A stretch of DNA of 41,926 nucleotides, taken from the IMG/VR virus record IMGVR_UViG_3300020045_017856, positions 1 to 41,926 of that record, one strand, 5' to 3'. This document shows positions 13,284 to 25,723 of the stretch, piece after piece. The stretch's first letter is position 1. Each line of letters begins with the position of its first letter. Source of the DNA: a virus (lineage: Duplodnaviria > Caudoviricetes). A program made the position numbers and the translations under genes. The notes below the pieces were generated by a model that searched no databases, was not told the DNA's origin, and saw nothing but the letters and a program-made list of their open reading frames with translations.

Positions 13284-13763
13284 ATGGCTATTGATGGAGA
13301 TTTGTTGCAAGCTATGAATGATGAAGTTGGCCGGTGGGCCCGTGGTACTGCCAGTAAAATGAAGCAGCGACTTGCTGCTGAAGGCCTCGATTCGCGACGC
13401 GCCAAACAACGTGGCAGTAGCCGATTGCGCATAGCTCGGAGTAGCAGTGGAGCAACCAAGTTGGTACAAGAAGTTCCCTTGATTGAAAGCATCCGCAGTG
13501 CGCTCAAATTTGACAATCAACTCCTGGATAGTATCGCCTTCCGATTTTCACGGCATGGTATTTTCCTGGAACTAGGCGTTGGAAAAAACCGCCCCAAAGG
13601 CAGCAGCTCCGCCAGTGCTACCGCTACTCCATGGTTGGCCCCGACCCTCAATGCAGAGATAGAAACATTGGCCGACATCCTTGCCAACAATTATGCTGAC
13701 ATCGCAGCCGGAGAAGTACGCATCCTCATCCCAGGTATTTTTGACACTCGAATAACCATTTAA
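13284..13763 (+). CDS. Neck/tail-completion protein (HK97 gp10-like)
   Basis: Basic protein with HGIFLELGVG and PWLAPTL motifs; between adaptor and tape measure. Confidence 0.6.
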   Translation: MAIDGDLLQAMNDEVGRWARGTASKMKQRLAAEGLDSRRAKQRGSSRLRIARSSSGATKLVQEVPLIESIRSALKFDNQLLDSIAFRFSRHGIFLELGVGKNRPKGSSSASATATPWLAPTLNAEIETLADILANNYADIAAGEVRILIPGIFDTRITI

Positions 13764-19938: not shown

Positions 19939-20283
19939 TTAAGGTTTAAAATTCCTGAACATCTCTTTCAAAAAGTCCTCTATCCGATCTAATCTATCAT
20001 TGTTGTTTGCATACCGCTCTCTCGGTTCATGCACAGCATGGATAGTCTCATTGTCAGTTTTTCTTAAAAAATCTGACAGCTGCAATTTTTCCAAACAAAA
20101 TCTTCTAAAAGGCACCCCAGACATTTCCTCGATTTTCAATAAGTCATCCATGTTCGGTTGATACTTATTATTCTCCCACGCACTGATCGTTGCATGTGAA
20201 ACATTGAAAATCAAGCTAAACTCTTCCTGCTTCATCCGAAGATGCTTGTCTCTGAACAACTTTAGGTTTTCGCCAAAATGCAT
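19939..20283 (-). CDS. XRE-family HTH repressor (CI-like)
   Basis: NLKLFR..MKQEEFS..FNVSHATISAWENNKYQP; divergent from Cro-like gene. Confidence 0.85.
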   Translation of the reverse strand: MHFGENLKLFRDKHLRMKQEEFSLIFNVSHATISAWENNKYQPNMDDLLKIEEMSGVPFRRFCLEKLQLSDFLRKTDNETIHAVHEPRERYANNNDRLDRIEDFLKEMFRNFKP

Positions 20284-20381
20284 TCGATTAAATTTTCCCT
20301 TAAAAAAATTTAAGGAATACTTGCAATTGAAGTAAAACTTACATACACTTGCAAAGTATTTGGAAACAAAATGTAAAGATA
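20284..20381. promoter_or_regulatory. CI/Cro divergent control region
   Basis: AT-rich intergenic region with repeated ACTTGCAA and AAGT-aaa-ACTT palindromic elements; exact operators not resolved. Confidence 0.55.
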
Positions 20382-20600
20382 ATGGAAACTACTCTAAAGA
20401 GTAAACTGAAGTGTTACAGTGGATCTATGAAGGAAATTGCGAATAGGACAGGCTTCTCTCGCCAGTATGTTCGTATGGTTCTATCTGGCAAAGCTAACAA
20501 TCTTCTGATTATCGAAGCAGCCACTACCCTACTTGCTGAGTACACCGAAAAAAAGAGAACGCTCGAAGAAACGGTATTGCAAGTAGTTCAAGAAGCATAA
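20382..20600 (+). CDS. Cro-like HTH protein
   Basis: MKEIANRTGFSRQYVRMVLSGK HTH; ATG at 20382. Confidence 0.75.
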   Translation: METTLKSKLKCYSGSMKEIANRTGFSRQYVRMVLSGKANNLLIIEAATTLLAEYTEKKRTLEETVLQVVQEA

Positions 20601-20738: not shown

Positions 20739-20811
20739 AGTGAGGTGGAGCAGTTGGTAGCTCGCCGGGCTCATAACCCGGAGGTCGGAGGTTCAAGTCC
20801 TCCCCTCGCAA
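20739..20811 (+). tRNA. tRNA-Met(CAU), initiator type
   Basis: Full cloverleaf; anticodon arm CCGGG-CTCATAA-CCCGG with three G:C pairs; A11:U24; 1:72 mismatch; T-loop TTCAAGT; CCA not encoded. Confidence 0.92.
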
Positions 20812-20885
20812 CATCTCTTGTTTTCTTTCTTTTTTTTGATTCATGAAGTTAAGTTCACTTTCAGCCCCCTTACGTGGGGGCCATT

Positions 20886-20958
20886 GCCGGGAAAGCACAA
20901 TTGGTTGTGCATCGGATTTGTACTCCGAGGGTTGCGGGTTCGAGTCCCGCTTCCGGCT
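20886..20958 (+). tRNA. tRNA-Thr(UGU)
   Basis: Acceptor GCCGGGA/TTCCGGC; anticodon arm TCGGA-TTTGTAC-TCCGA; T arm GCGGG-TTCGAGT-CCCGC. Confidence 0.9.
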
Positions 20959-20965
20959 CACTTAA

Positions 20966-21100
20966 TGGGAATTCTGGTCCGGTCACGTTGGTGGCGCAAC
21001 GTGAAGCCAAAAAGCCAGGGGAGTTCTAATGTGGACTCCCCTCTTCAACCAAAAAAATACTCGTTGGTTTTGGGGGTGAGTCATCCGGTGATTCCCCCCA
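20966..21100 (+). ncRNA. Candidate structured ncRNA (four consecutive hairpins)
   Basis: Stems TCACGTTG/CAACGTGA, AGGGGAGTTC/GGACTCCCCT, AACCAA/TTGGTT, TGGGGG-GAGTCA/TGATTC-CCCCCA; no convincing ORF. Confidence 0.4.
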
Positions 21101-21274
21101 TACTTTGAATAGCGTATTAACTGGGGTTTTAGTTTATCGAGAGTGGGAGGATAGCTTTGTGCTGTTGAGGTGTGCCCACTCTCCTTTTCTCCCAAAAAAG
21201 AAAGCCCCGCGCAGCTGTAACTGCGCGAGGCCGGAGTAGCAAATAATTATTCACTACAAAAATGCAACACAAAG

Positions 21275-21997
21275 ATGAGCATTTCCAAGCAAACTCACAA
21301 CTTCGTAAACCCTGCATTTGCAGGTATTTTTGACGGAGTTACGGCGTACATGCCGCAAATTACTTTCTACGGCATCATTGCCACCTACGCCATCACGGCG
21401 TTACTCAACGTGTTTTTCATTCCCCTCCCCTTCTTCGTGTCCATCCCGGCAGCCGTCGCGATCGCCTTTACGCGATTCGCCATTGTCTTCATGGACTTCC
21501 TCAATCCAACTGGCCGCCGCAGCGTGTGGCCCCTCATGATCGCATTCGGCCTTACGGTGGTGGCACTGGTGGAGCTGGGCTTTAGCATCCAGGAGTTTGG
21601 CTGGGCAGAAGAAAAATTTTGGGCAACCTTCCTTTTTGGGTCCACCATTATTGCGGGAGGGTATCTCTTGGAGGTGAACTTCATTGCCAAGGGCGCCGAG
21701 GCATTTGGCCTCGGGGAAGCTACACAAAAGCAAAAAGGCGTGCTTAGTGCAGCAGCAACACCCCCCCCATCTACTGGAGATGTAGCGGCACTGATGGCAG
21801 AGATTGAGTTCCTAAAGAACCAGATGACTACCGCCGCACAAGCTACCCCTACCCTACTACCGGGAAACGGGCAACCCCCAGTGAAGGCGAATCCGTCTAC
21901 GGCGAACCTGGGGCATCTTCCTTCTTACTCGAACGGGAACTCGAACGGGAACACCAACGGGAATGGCAACGGGAACGGGAACGGCTACAAGCCGTAA
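21275..21997 (+). CDS. Early multi-pass membrane protein with Asn/Gly-repeat tail (0-frame product)
   Basis: About four hydrophobic segments, short coiled coil, NGNSNGNTNGNGNGNGNG tail. Confidence 0.8.
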   Translation: MSISKQTHNFVNPAFAGIFDGVTAYMPQITFYGIIATYAITALLNVFFIPLPFFVSIPAAVAIAFTRFAIVFMDFLNPTGRRSVWPLMIAFGLTVVALVELGFSIQEFGWAEEKFWATFLFGSTIIAGGYLLEVNFIAKGAEAFGLGEATQKQKGVLSAAATPPPSTGDVAALMAEIEFLKNQMTTAAQATPTLLPGNGQPPVKANPSTANLGHLPSYSNGNSNGNTNGNGNGNGNGYKP

Positions 21998-22134
21998 CGC
22001 CAACCCCCCATTTCTGCGCCAGCTGCGGCGTAGAAATTACCTACCGCCCAGCACGGCAAACCCTTGTCCAACACTGCTCCCCGAGGTGCAGGACAAGGGC
22101 TTACCGAAAACGTAAAGCTTTAATGTCCAGTTAG
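21868..22134 (+). CDS. Start-less -1-frame extension: ER-rich helix plus CxxC...CxxxC zinc finger (putative frameshift product)
   Basis: Frame open 21808-22134, no ATG/GTG/TTG before 22123; encodes ERELEREHQREWQRERERLQ...CASCG...HCSPRCRTRAYRKRK; in-phase G GGA AAC at 21862-68. Confidence 0.65.
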   Translation, partial: RATPSEGESVYGEPGASSFLLERELEREHQREWQRERERLQAVTPTPHFCASCGVEITYRPARQTLVQHCSPRCRTRAYRKRKALMSS

Positions 22135-22176
22135 AAATGCGTCACAGTGACGCACTTAGTTTTCACCAATCAAAAA

Positions 22177-22419
22177 ATGTACATTATGTACGATAAGCGA
22201 TATAGCAACGAGGCCATCAAGCGCATCCGCAATCAAGCCTCCATCACGATGTTTATTTGCATGCTACTCCTGGCCATCGGGGTAGGGAAGGTAGCGTATG
22301 CTACCGGCTACCATGATGGATATTACTCCAGAACCATGTCGCCAGCAAATGTAAAAACAAGCAACGTACAGCAGCCGCGCTCCAGCTTGGTTAGTCCTTT
22401 TCAAATGAGCAACGAGTAA
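22177..22419 (+). CDS. Small single-pass membrane protein
   Basis: ITMFICMLLLAIGVGKVAY hydrophobic stretch; start uncertain (22177 or 22186). Confidence 0.55.
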   Translation: MYIMYDKRYSNEAIKRIRNQASITMFICMLLLAIGVGKVAYATGYHDGYYSRTMSPANVKTSNVQQPRSSLVSPFQMSNE

Positions 22420-22579
22420 GGATCTTCATTACTCCAATTTTTACGCTGCAGCATTAGCTGCTTTCTCACAGTCTACTTACACAATTGAAAAGTTTTCCAG
22501 GGCATAGCGCAATCCCTCCTGCGCTATGCTCCTGGACAGATCGACTCATTTTTATCCACTTCGCAAACACCAGGCCGGC

Positions 22580-25500
22580 ATGATCAAAAATGCAACGGAG
22601 ATCCGGGACAAGGTCTCGATACTACACGTAGTAGGGGAGCACGTAGAGCTAAAGCGCTCGGGTGCAAACCATGTCGGGCATTGCCCTTTTCACCAGGAGA
22701 AAAGCCCCAGCTTCACAGTTAGTGAAGCCAAGGGAATCTATAAGTGTTTTGGCTGCGGAGCGTCCGGTGATTCGGTCGCGTTCCTCATCGATCACCTGGG
22801 CCTCAGTTATCCCGAAGCCCTGGAGCGTGCCGCACAAATAGGAGGGATCTCCGTAGACTACGAAGAGCGTGAGCGCCGCGCGGAGTTCATTGCCAAGCAA
22901 AAGGAGAGCCGCGACAAGATGTCCACGCTATTCCAGGTCATGCAGCAGGTACAAGCATTCCTGCTCAAAAACACCTGGGGGCACCTGGCCTTTGCCCCTG
23001 AAGACATCATCGCCATTGGGCCCAACCGTACCTACACCTATGCTACACTAGAAAAATACGGGGTAACCTACACCCCCGAAGGGAACCATCTGCCCGATGT
23101 GAGCGATGAAAGTCTTGTAGAAGTTGGTTTTAATAAGTCGTCTGACCGAGGCGGTTCCTATCCTTTTTACCGGGACCGCCTCCTTTTTCCCATCACCGAT
23201 CACCGTGGCCGCATCTGTAGCTATGCTGGCCGCAAGCCTTACACCGATGTTCGGCCCGACAATCCGAAGTACATCAATGGTAGGGACACTTTCCTGTACA
23301 AAAAGGAGGAGCACCTCTACGGACTGCACCAGGCCCTACGCCACATCCGCAGCATGGACAGTGCTGTGCTGATGGAGGGCTACACCGATGTACTCACCCT
23401 CAGCGAACACGGCTACCCAAACGGGGTGGCCAGCTGCGGCACCGCATTTGGTACCGAGCAAGCCAAGCTGCTCAAGCGCTTCACGACCAACGTGCTCATC
23501 CTGCGCGATGGCGACGCAGCTGGGCTGAAGGCCGCAAAAAACGACGTCGAAACCCTGGTGCGCGAGGGCATCGTGCCGAAGGTATGCATCTTGCCCGATG
23601 GCGAGGATCCCGACTCCTTTGCCCGCAAGCACGGTGAGTCCGGCCTGCGCTTTTACATCGAGGAGAAAGCCCAGGATGGCCTGGTCTGGCGCGTGATGAG
23701 CGACTACTCCGAGGATCCATTCCTGAAGCAAACCAGCCTGCGCATAGCCGGTGAGTTGCTGGCTTGTCTGGACAGCGCCTCGATGCGCGACGCCTACATC
23801 AAGGAGCTGACCAAAAAGAATAGGCTAGGGGATATGCGCCGCATCCTGAAGGATGAGATGGAGCAGGCCGAGGAGAAAATGCTTAAGACTAAAAGCCCCC
23901 TCACGGACCAGCAGCAAGAAGACGCTATCCACTACGGCCTGTACGCCAACAACAACAAGTACTTTGTCACCAGCGACCCCAACAATACGGGGTTCTCCAT
24001 CTCCAACTTCACCGTGGAGGGCATCATGCTGGTAATCGGTACCGAGATCAGCCAGCGCGTGATCCGGATCCGGAATGAGTGGGGCAAAGAGTACACCCTC
24101 ATCATCGATGCCAGCTGGATGACCAGCTTCACCGACTTCCGCAAGCAGGTGGAGCGCATGGGCAACTTCTTGTTCACAGGCAAGCCCGAAATGTTCGACC
24201 GCGTAAAGGCGATGGTGTACGGCCAAACCCGCGATGCATTCCCGATCAACACCATGGGCTGGCACCGCGATGGGTTCTATACCTGGGGCAACGGCGTGAG
24301 CATCGACGGCAAATTTATACCGGTGGACGAGCTGGGCCTGGTGCAGCACAAAGACACCCGCTATTTCCTGCCCGCCTTCAGCAAGCTGAGTGAGCAGTTT
24401 AAGGGTGATGACTCGGAGGATAGCTACGAGTTTGAGCGCAAGTTCTGCTACCATCCCGAACCTGCCTGCACCAGCACCAGCCACTGGAGCAAGCTCATGG
24501 TGGAAGTACACGGCTGGAATGGGGGCATGGCCGTAGCGTACTTTGTGGCCAGCTTGTACCGGGACATCATCTTCCGCAAGTTCCAATTCTTCCCGCACCT
24601 GAACATGTTCGGTCCATCCGGATCCGGCAAAACGTTCTTGGCACGCTCGGTCATGGCCATGTTTGGCCGTGGCAACCTGCAGGATCCGTTCAACCTGGCC
24701 AGTGGTACGCCCGTGGCGTTTAAGCGCCGCTTGAGCCAGGTCTCCAATGGGATCATCTGGTTTGACGAATACTCGAACGACATCGACTTCAAGCGGGTAG
24801 AATCCCTTAAAGGAGCCTACGACGGTGCTGGCCACCAGCGCGGCACCGTAAAGGATGGTGAGGTAAAAACCACCAAAGTCCGTAGTGCCTTACTGCTCAG
24901 CGGCCAGCAGCAGCCTACCAAGGATATAGCCCTGTTCAAAAGGGTAGTAAGCTTGAACTGTAGCTCGGGAAAAAACACCCTCGAAAAACAGATCGTTGCC
25001 CGCGAGCTGAAGAACATCGAGGAGACTGGCGTGCTCACGCAGATCACCCAGGTACTGCTCCAATACCGCGACTACGTGGAGGAAGAATTCAGCCTCCGCT
25101 TCGAAAAGCTGCGCACCTTTTTCACGGGCCTTATCGAGGAGAAAGGCGCTTTTGTAGAAGACCGCATCACGGCCAACCACCTGATCCCGCTTACCGTGAT
25201 TCAGATGATCTCTGAAAAAATCGACATCGGCTTTGACATGAAAGCCTTCCTACTGTTCACCCTGGAGAACATCATCCAGCAATCTGAGGCCATTTTCGCC
25301 GAAGACGAGCTGAGCATCTTCTGGCGCATTGTGCAGTACCTGCTCGAATCGGGTAGGGTAGAGCACAAAAAGGATGTGCTGGTAGAAGAGAAGATCGACG
25401 AAACCTTCCTGAACGAACTCGACCGCGACCGCAAAGAGAGCGTATCCAAAAGCTTTAAGGCCAAAACCAAACTGTGCTACATCCGCTTTAGCCGCATCCA

Positions 25501-25723
25501 TCCTGAGTATCAGGATCGGCACAGTAAGCAGCGCGGCAAACTTGGCCTGGAGCTGGGCGCACTGCAATACTACCTCCGGGGGAGTGAAGCGTACCTGGGC
25601 CAGAAGCGCAGCAAGAAGTTTGGCAACGCCAGCTATGCCTGCTACGTGTTCAACGCGGAGCTACTGCCAGTAGAGCTGCAAGTTTCAGAATTGCAACAAA
25701 TAACTTCCGAATCGCCCTTTTAG
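22580..25723 (+). CDS. dnaG: DnaG-type DNA primase fused to P-loop NTPase/helicase domain
   Basis: CHC2 zinc finger CPFHQEKSPSF..YKCFGCG; PKYING; Toprim EGYTDV and DGDAAG, DPD; C-terminal GPSGSGKT and IIWFDEY. Confidence 0.92.
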   Translation: MIKNATEIRDKVSILHVVGEHVELKRSGANHVGHCPFHQEKSPSFTVSEAKGIYKCFGCGASGDSVAFLIDHLGLSYPEALERAAQIGGISVDYEERERRAEFIAKQKESRDKMSTLFQVMQQVQAFLLKNTWGHLAFAPEDIIAIGPNRTYTYATLEKYGVTYTPEGNHLPDVSDESLVEVGFNKSSDRGGSYPFYRDRLLFPITDHRGRICSYAGRKPYTDVRPDNPKYINGRDTFLYKKEEHLYGLHQALRHIRSMDSAVLMEGYTDVLTLSEHGYPNGVASCGTAFGTEQAKLLKRFTTNVLILRDGDAAGLKAAKNDVETLVREGIVPKVCILPDGEDPDSFARKHGESGLRFYIEEKAQDGLVWRVMSDYSEDPFLKQTSLRIAGELLACLDSASMRDAYIKELTKKNRLGDMRRILKDEMEQAEEKMLKTKSPLTDQQQEDAIHYGLYANNNKYFVTSDPNNTGFSISNFTVEGIMLVIGTEISQRVIRIRNEWGKEYTLIIDASWMTSFTDFRKQVERMGNFLFTGKPEMFDRVKAMVYGQTRDAFPINTMGWHRDGFYTWGNGVSIDGKFIPVDELGLVQHKDTRYFLPAFSKLSEQFKGDDSEDSYEFERKFCYHPEPACTSTSHWSKLMVEVHGWNGGMAVAYFVASLYRDIIFRKFQFFPHLNMFGPSGSGKTFLARSVMAMFGRGNLQDPFNLASGTPVAFKRRLSQVSNGIIWFDEYSNDIDFKRVESLKGAYDGAGHQRGTVKDGEVKTTKVRSALLLSGQQQPTKDIALFKRVVSLNCSSGKNTLEKQIVARELKNIEETGVLTQITQVLLQYRDYVEEEFSLRFEKLRTFFTGLIEEKGAFVEDRITANHLIPLTVIQMISEKIDIGFDMKAFLLFTLENIIQQSEAIFAEDELSIFWRIVQYLLESGRVEHKKDVLVEEKIDETFLNELDRDRKESVSKSFKAKTKLCYIRFSRIHPEYQDRHSKQRGKLGLELGALQYYLRGSEAYLGQKRSKKFGNASYACYVFNAELLPVELQVSELQQITSESPF

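Follow-up and report, generated by a model that had tools for sequence, protein, structure and literature searches.

Introduction

Most annotated frameshifts of phages concern virion assembly, and the tail chaperones account for 2397 of the 2476 joined genes in one training set of such annotations (PMC10885494). The heptamer GGGAAAC has been predicted as the chaperone slip site in Colossus (PMC3556154), KL1 (PMC3483164) and HCTV-1 (PMC5009743). Among IS elements the same heptamer, G_GG.A_AA.C, is frequent yet weak in E. coli, and the V_VV.A_AA.R and H_HH.U_UU.Y types are counted among the most efficient heptamers (PMC4066793). A review of the Ig-like domains of phage proteins further states that their decoding may be -1, +1 or in-frame indifferently (PMC5009743).

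Here we describe a membrane gene of a tailed virus (Caudoviricetes) that is followed by a zinc-finger module in the -1 frame. The window, meaning the whole stretch of DNA that was analysed, comprises 41,926 nucleotides (IMG/VR record IMGVR_UViG_3300020045_017856). An earlier note on this DNA had proposed a -1 frameshift at G GGA AAC that would yield a short and a finger-bearing form of the protein, and the conservation of the heptamer across relatives now argues for that proposal. The coordinates given there, together with the open frame, the phase of the heptamer, the spacer and the stem arms, were all reproduced base for base.

The Membrane Gene and its Genomic Context

The 0-frame gene (21275..21997, + strand) encodes the 240-aa short form, for which AF2 and hydropathy predict four membrane helices, another helix and a disordered tail rich in Asn and Gly. 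In the AF2 model the four long helices span residues 13-48, 53-75, 85-107 and 112-143, the fourth being of modest hydropathy, and the further helix spans residues 167-188. The four-helix membrane domain (21311..21703, +) is common to the whole family and found no match in Pfam, PHROGs, NCBIfam or PADLOC. PDB fold searches with the membrane model returned generic four-helix bundles only, and the predicted structures gave no match that would assign a function.

The surroundings of the gene in this 41.9-kb virus record include an integrase, cI/Cro-like genes, two tRNAs and a DnaG-type primase. Upstream lie divergent cI-like (-) and Cro-like (+) HTH genes (19939..20600), followed by tRNA-Met(CAT) and tRNA-Thr(TGT) (20739..20959, +), which were the only passing matches of the Rfam scan. 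Downstream, a small hydrophobic gene, also found in L003 and L004, precedes the DnaG-type primase with its P-loop domain (22177..25723, +). Similarly, the membrane gene of several related loci stands after cI/Cro or integrase genes and before a primase.

Several smaller features flank the gene. Between tRNA-Thr and the membrane gene (20965-21192) runs a series of strong hairpins, -18 to -35 kcal/mol per stretch, which belongs to no Rfam family and is possibly made of decayed tRNAs or a small-RNA array. Next to it is a GC-rich hairpin (21193-21247), terminator-like on the minus strand, whose 55 bases were found unchanged in a freshwater contig with different flanks. A short upstream ATG frame (MQHKDE..., 21263-21334) overlaps the start of the membrane gene in the -1 frame. 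Directly after the -1 stop there is a perfect inverted repeat with 8-bp arms, TGCGTCAC-A-GTGACGCA (22138..22154, +), possibly an operator or a weak terminator; its left arm and the bases before it are common to L003.

Slip Site and Overlapping Frame in the Window

The slippery heptamer G GGA AAC (21862..21868, +) lies in phase, comprising the third base of Pro196 followed by Gly197 and Asn198, and it is the sole XXXYYYZ sequence in any phase within 21790-21997. When codons were shuffled synonymously, G GGA AAC arose in the window overlap with P 0.025. The -1 frame (21808..22134, +) leads from the slip site to TAG 22134 and is devoid of a start, its only ATG, GTG or TTG being ATG 22123; by the same kind of shuffle, P is 0.029 for its staying open over the 44 codons to the 0-frame stop. 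The predicted fusion is a long form of 286 aa that ends in a treble-clef-like zinc finger of the pattern CxxC...CxxxC with a basic helix (22015..22131, +; net charge +8 over the last 49 aa), and its Cys codons begin at 22015, 22024, 22075 and 22087. The earlier note had suggested comparing this start-less frame with related phages, and in divergent relatives both the heptamer and the start-less -1 module turned out to be kept.

Behind the heptamer comes the spacer GGGCAAC (21869..21875, +) of 7 nt, which measures 6 nt in L003, L004 and L112, and then a candidate stimulatory stem, CCCCAG (21876-81) pairing with CTGGGG (21908-13), with an inner hairpin (21876..21913, +). The arms and the inner hairpin are present as the earlier note had described them, folding at -13.8 kcal/mol, but dinucleotide shuffles fold just as stably (z 0.0), and the four aligned loci of the window type, all of which have the stem, show four invariant basal C-G pairs and no two-sided covariation. 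The stem is retained in 4 of the 16 split loci found through the membrane domain (the window, L003, L004 and L112). Folding z scores below -2.5 were obtained in two of these 16 (L004, -2.8; L105, -3.9), and scores of -2.5 or lower in two of the five split loci found through the finger (L119, -2.5; L120, -5.6). The 3' arm also codes for an LG(S)H-like motif that is retained in fused forms.

A dual-coding stretch (21929..21994, +) gives the Asn/Gly tail in frame 0 and a charged linker in the -1 frame. The linker had been taken for an ER helix, a claim that has to be given up: it is not conserved and is simply the -1 reading of AAC GGN codons. The tail, on the other hand, recurs throughout the family, with NG within the last 20 aa in 80 of the 82 short homologues among the matches listed. 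Of these 82, 25 have Pro-Phe/Leu close to the end and lack xGN. Since this NG tail is conserved, is written with varied synonymous codons in the split loci and is kept internally in the fused finger forms, the sequences suggest that the short form matters too.

Survey of Relatives

A search with the membrane domain retrieved 187 proteins among 350 candidates. The class counts, which cover the 120 of these 187 that were listed, comprise 82 short proteins, 8 with the finger in frame and 30 with a basic helical domain in frame. Locus DNA was taken from viral, metagenome and genome collections, giving 112 loci with a profile match, 10 of them truncated. Of the 80 distinct complete loci analysed, 16 are split and have the module in the -1 frame, 25 are in-frame fusions, two are odd cases (L012 and L106) and 37 are short genes, most of which have behind them a gene with a start of its own. 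Five further split loci came from a search with the finger, described below, making 21 in all. The membrane domains of the 16 split loci from the membrane-domain search are 31-81% identical to that of the window; these loci are mutually related, and therefore the counts and per-locus probabilities given below are not independent and the probabilities are not to be multiplied as such. The family tree has an unresolved backbone and an unreliable L116 branch, and the order of events is not readable from it.

In genome records, the named relatives belong to Saprospiraceae and Haliscomenobacter, and more distant ones are labelled Flavobacterium and Pseudomonadota. The GenBank phage collection gave no tblastn match, no longer homologues (421-2000 aa) were present among 915 candidates, and genome searches around G002, G003 and the order yielded no further loci. 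In one contig the gene region is present twice, as identical copies at a distance of about 7 kb (L006 and L007), representing either a tandem element or an assembly duplication. A distant clade of short-only genes (L002, L039-L082 and L095-L097) has a basic, KRRKRK-like tail, and most of its genes are coupled by an overlapping start to a gene of about 160 aa, presumably RuvC-like from its look.

Homologues with the finger in frame had been named in the earlier note as a finding that would speak against frameshifting. They do exist, the 8 of the 120 listed matches being of this kind, and we read them as support for the fusion product. L094, the sole in-frame finger locus with tail DNA read, has no heptamer there. 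When 54 frames were ranked by a profile built only from in-frame fingers, the ten with out-of-frame fingers came at the top (window, E 3e-4), and relatives therefore encode directly the type of fusion that is predicted here.

These fusions might also be taken to mean that the split arose from a sequencing or assembly indel, or that it marks the decay of a once-fused gene; both kinds of in-frame fusion are known among the matches listed (8/120 with a finger, 30/120 with a helical domain), neither of two small-share DNA runs reaches 21270-22400, and L012, L106 and L119, the last having an internal stop in its membrane gene, may be damaged copies. However, the same split with the same heptamer recurs in many separate contigs, in which the membrane domain is 42-81% identical to that of the window, the out-of-frame modules retain their conserved residues, and the 0-frame tail has a conserved NG motif of its own, so that an indel or decay is barely credible as the general explanation.

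Independent Search with the Finger

A profile built from ten out-of-frame fingers matched 52 of the 401 genomes of the family, and the best 30 of 54 finger places were read. They included three known loci and five new split loci (L116, L119, L120, L121 and L122), each with a membrane gene and a finger in the -1 frame; the in-phase heptamer is G GGA AAC in four of the new loci and G GGA AAG in L120. Among the best 30 of 54, fingers lacking a start before the first Cys are accompanied by a heptamer in six of seven cases, the seventh being L106, while 17 of the other 22 finger loci have no heptamer.

The membrane genes of the new loci differ in their relation to the family. That of L116 is a distant homologue with an independent E of 1.2e-8; its later profile score is circular, the L116 sequence being inside the profile. 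Homology is borderline for L120 (E 0.02) and L121 (E 0.05). The membrane gene of L122 has no detectable homology to the family and still uses G GGA AAC, and the same holds for that of L119, which resembles L122 by eye.

Fingers of this type were also met in other settings. In L115 (1150-1632) and L118 (1333-1680), fingers with an in-phase heptamer are fused into unrelated frames and look like stray 3' remnants of split genes. The L118 finger comes after what we take to be a toxin-antitoxin-like pair. Three larger proteins of membrane or coiled-coil-like appearance (L124, 286-1629; L125, 550-1635; L142, 1-1644), none with a Pfam match, carry the same finger in frame at the C-terminus, and L124 has GGGAAAC in finger phase. 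L131, finally, combines a finger of this kind with an HTH_17 excisionase domain.

Selection on the Slip Site

An in-phase XXXYYYZ heptamer inside the overlap that is open in the -1 frame was found in 16 of the 16 split loci from the membrane-domain search, and in 21 of 21 when the finger-side loci are included. Of the 25 in-frame-fusion loci one gave a positive result in this test, and of the 37 short-only loci three did, the overlaps of these controls being shorter; the background of any in-phase heptamer is 26 in 5551 codons. G GGA AAC serves in 16 of the 21 split loci, behind 8 different NNG codons; on the membrane side it does so in 12 of 16, after CCG, CAG, ACG, TTG, GTG or AAG. At xGN control sites, by comparison, G GGA AAC occurred in 0 of 23 cases in fused and short-only relatives and in 0 of 23 cases in nine large ORFs of the window. 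Among the matches listed, 57 residues other than Asn precede a tail GN, and 56 of them can be written with a codon that ends in G; among non-Asn tail residues, 13.5% have no such codon. Synonymous shuffles of each locus gave P 0.013-0.058 for G GGA AAC in the overlap and 0.04-0.43 for any A/T heptamer.

The remaining membrane-side loci use C CCT TTG (L001), C CCT TTC (L038), A AAA AAA/AAT (L104) and A AAT TTT (L105); the sites of L120, L038 and L105 and one of those of L104 fit the V_VV.A_AA.R and H_HH.U_UU.Y classes. Since at least four other heptamers replace the slip site and the modules are of two unrelated types, the recoding itself appears to be under selection. In six loci of the helical type an extra A AAA AAG lies 8-11 codons downstream. 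The notion that slipping is coupled to membrane insertion at a fixed distance was rejected, the distance between the last helix motif and the heptamer spanning 25-134 codons.

The overlap behaves in a corresponding way. In all 16 membrane-side split loci the -1 frame has no stop from the heptamer to the 0-frame stop, with 1-8 stops in the 60 codons upstream. Ten of these loci have 29-44 codons to the stop, and in each of them the -1 frame would stay open by chance with a probability of 0.03-0.17. In L104 and L120 the first Cys of the finger comes before the 0-frame stop.

This evidence bears on whether the finger could instead be a separate small protein, made by a restart at the near-cognate ACG of TAACG with the heptamer being incidental. 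Upstream of the first Cys, ACG 21997 alone differs from ATG by a single base, and it overlaps the 0-frame TAA like the starts of coupled genes. In addition, the module start always lies near the 0-frame stop, the finger could have a start of its own in L038, where a TTG covers the stop, and in L121, where an ATG is located 7 codons ahead of the Cys, and many of the best 30 of 54 finger loci have the finger at the N-terminus of its own ATG gene. However, the ACG is found in none of L003, L004 and L001. Its position -3 is a G, and its 15 upstream bases include 4 A, versus 9 for the gene's own ATG; Bacteroidia are stated to select starts by upstream adenines (PMC13000457). The position of the first Cys in L104 and L120 therefore excludes restart after termination in these two loci, and restart leaves unexplained both the selection on the third base before GGA AAC and the stop-free -1 overlap. 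We regard it as very unlikely.

Deviating Loci

Two loci depart from the -1 arrangement. In L012 (3020-3227) the finger is in the +1 frame, with an in-phase C CCA AAC; its -1 frame is open through the stop and closes two codons after. The locus could use genuine +1 recoding; alternatively, the +1 frame would be accounted for if a single base had been lost behind the stop. The short-form end of P0164 is nearly the same as that of L012. In L106 (2030-2244) the finger is in frame 0 directly after TGA, without a heptamer, possibly by readthrough or as a damaged split locus.

Such frames invite the thought of another recoding event, either transcriptional slippage or an event at the stop codon, be it a shift or readthrough, that the Asn/Gly/His tail would promote, and the NG motif in the last 20 aa of 80 of the 82 short forms listed would suit the latter. 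Yet there is no homopolymer of 6 or more within 21808-21997, and a shift at the stop codon needs neither an upstream heptamer nor the stop-free overlap of 29-44 codons seen in ten loci, nor can it yield a full finger in L104 or L120. For the family as a whole we hold these alternatives to be highly improbable, and -1 slippage at the heptamer is retained in what follows.

Appended Modules

The modules encoded in the -1 frame come in two sizes, a finger of 40-55 aa or a basic helical domain of 80-95 aa. Among ten out-of-frame fingers three Cys are invariant (10/10), and the fourth ligand is Cys in eight and His in two. The finger gave weak matches to L24e (E 0.007) and to DUF2256, DUF2116, zf-FCS and YacG, all below the Pfam curated cut-offs, the YacG match of the L001 finger having E 0.005. 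In the predicted model (pLDDT 80, helix 33-48) the best fold match is YacG with Z 3.9, rmsd 3.1 and 41 aligned residues, a Z score in the range of common arrangements.

Eight split loci carry in the -1 frame the helical domain instead of the finger, with 12 invariant columns. Homology to the in-frame helical module of group B was not detected (best E 0.48), and the two are therefore treated as different modules; a viral scan with the helical module gave 60 pattern matches, none of them confirmed. All appended modules that were measured are net basic (+3 to +15), as are the short tails of ten short-only loci. The membrane domain of L103 is 40-47% identical, and its tail and module are nearly the same as those of L092.

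Proposed Mechanism and Function

The comparison makes it very probable that the locus is expressed by programmed -1 ribosomal frameshifting, in which ribosomes slip at the conserved heptamer. Ribosomes with tRNA-Gly and tRNA-Asn on GGA AAC would occasionally slip back by one base and continue to 22134, producing the 286-aa form with the same four predicted membrane helices and a basic zinc finger, and those that do not slip would produce the 240-aa form with the Asn/Gly tail. The long form is probably the minority product, because G GGA AAC is of low efficiency in E. coli (PMC4066793).

Helices 2 and 3 are joined by a basic loop, PTGRRS, which suggests a cytoplasmic location of both termini; a flexible linker would then connect the basic finger of the long form to the inner membrane. 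We lean, from the sequences compared, towards nucleic acid as what the finger binds. A protein ligand has also been considered, the finger then making a membrane-tethered modulator of gyrase like YacG, or else the pair of products serving superinfection exclusion, with the frameshift real in either case. YacG is indeed the best fold match (Z 3.9), accompanied by the weak Pfam match of L001 (E 0.005), and membrane genes of early regions often act in exclusion. On the other side, common arrangements also reach Z scores of this size, and PADLOC gave no match. Furthermore, four unrelated C-terminal modules (the finger, two helical domains and the short basic tail) share basic charge only, and nucleic-acid binding therefore fits better than a specific protein target. 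We consider the protein-binding and exclusion readings rather unlikely.

If the finger binds nucleic acid, a tentative proposal for the job of the long form would be to anchor the excised or replicating element at the membrane in the early programme. The suggestion of DNA tethering comes from the basic charge common to unrelated modules, from the excisionase fusion, from the setting of the gene near integrase, Cro and primase, and from weak fold matches to DUF2637 and to phage membrane proteins labelled HTH or excisionase.

Equally tentative is the idea of a portable cassette, in which heptamer, stop-free overlap and module may travel together and attach to the 3' ends of various membrane genes, in Saprospirales and in other mobile elements, and would fix a low share of DNA-gripping anchor subunits. 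Signs pointing this way are the lack of detectable homology in L119 and L122, the likeness of the tails of L103 and L092, and the apparent remnants in L115 and L118. If true, the cassette would be a second widespread class of phage frameshift, outside the virion genes and missed by gene callers.

Comparison with Known Systems

The tail assembly chaperone G/GT likewise consists of a short and a long product with a common N-terminus. Unlike G/GT, however, the present gene lies between the Cro/tRNA region and the primase, about 4.6 kb past a 958-aa tape-measure-like gene and not upstream of it, and no Pfam or PHROG match was obtained for its protein, P0001, at E 0.1. Identity with G/GT is thus ruled out by position and homology. 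The gene before the tape-measure-like ORF (13284-13763) has no in-phase heptamer near its stop, and there is no obvious tail-chaperone frameshift in this phage.

IS1 and IS3, with their OrfA/OrfAB products, resemble the locus in being mobile-element genes among which G_GG.A_AA.C is frequent (PMC4066793). They differ from the present family, in which it is the membrane domain that stays the same and the frameshift that would supply the presumed DNA-binding part, and an OrfAB identity was rejected, there being no transposase (DDE) domain and the -1 module being a finger or helical. The TRASH, YacG and FCS treble-clef fingers share the CxxC..[YFH]CxxxC pattern and the basic helix, with all matches below curated cut-offs, and their function is not transferable.

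Membrane proteins of the DUF2637 type from actinophages, some of them annotated as HTH or excisionase fusions, were the top structural neighbours of two independent models and have a similar plan, a membrane bundle with a presumed DNA-binding C-terminus. The fold comparison reached TM 0.61 in the Atlas, under the naming bar, and E 0.01-0.05 in BFVD, all above E 0.001; Pfam DUF2637 (PF10935) gave no match at E 0.1 in P0001, 24 homologues and the finger-side membrane genes that were scanned. The literature searched held passing mentions of DUF2637-type proteins and no functional paper. The membrane protein p16.7 of phage phi29 brings the viral DNA to the membrane (PMC4974454); it is a functional analogue only, with no homology seen and no frameshift mentioned.

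A description of the family or its frameshifting was not found in the open literature searched. We regard the locus as a case of a known mechanism in an undescribed family, a predicted assignment strongly supported by comparison. It would expose hidden, predicted DNA-binding membrane proteins that are now annotated only as truncated hypothetical proteins. The family also offers a natural panel of slip sites for the rules of -1 frameshifting in Bacteroidota, whose ribosomes are stated to disregard Shine-Dalgarno sequences.

The closest parallel is found in the Ig-like domains on capsid and tail proteins of T3, A2, A118 and PSA, where a C-terminal module is likewise placed on a share of the products (PMC5009743). 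In those systems -1, +1 and in-frame decoding coexist, just as -1, +1, stop-separated and in-frame forms occur side by side in this family. The Ig-like systems are virion proteins, whereas the gene described here lies in the early region, and its predicted inner-membrane product would gain a zinc finger or a basic helical domain. Annotated phage frameshifts are almost all found in tail chaperones, with a few in capsid and tail proteins, and the present candidate, a comparatively well-supported one, belongs in contrast to a non-structural membrane family of the early region.
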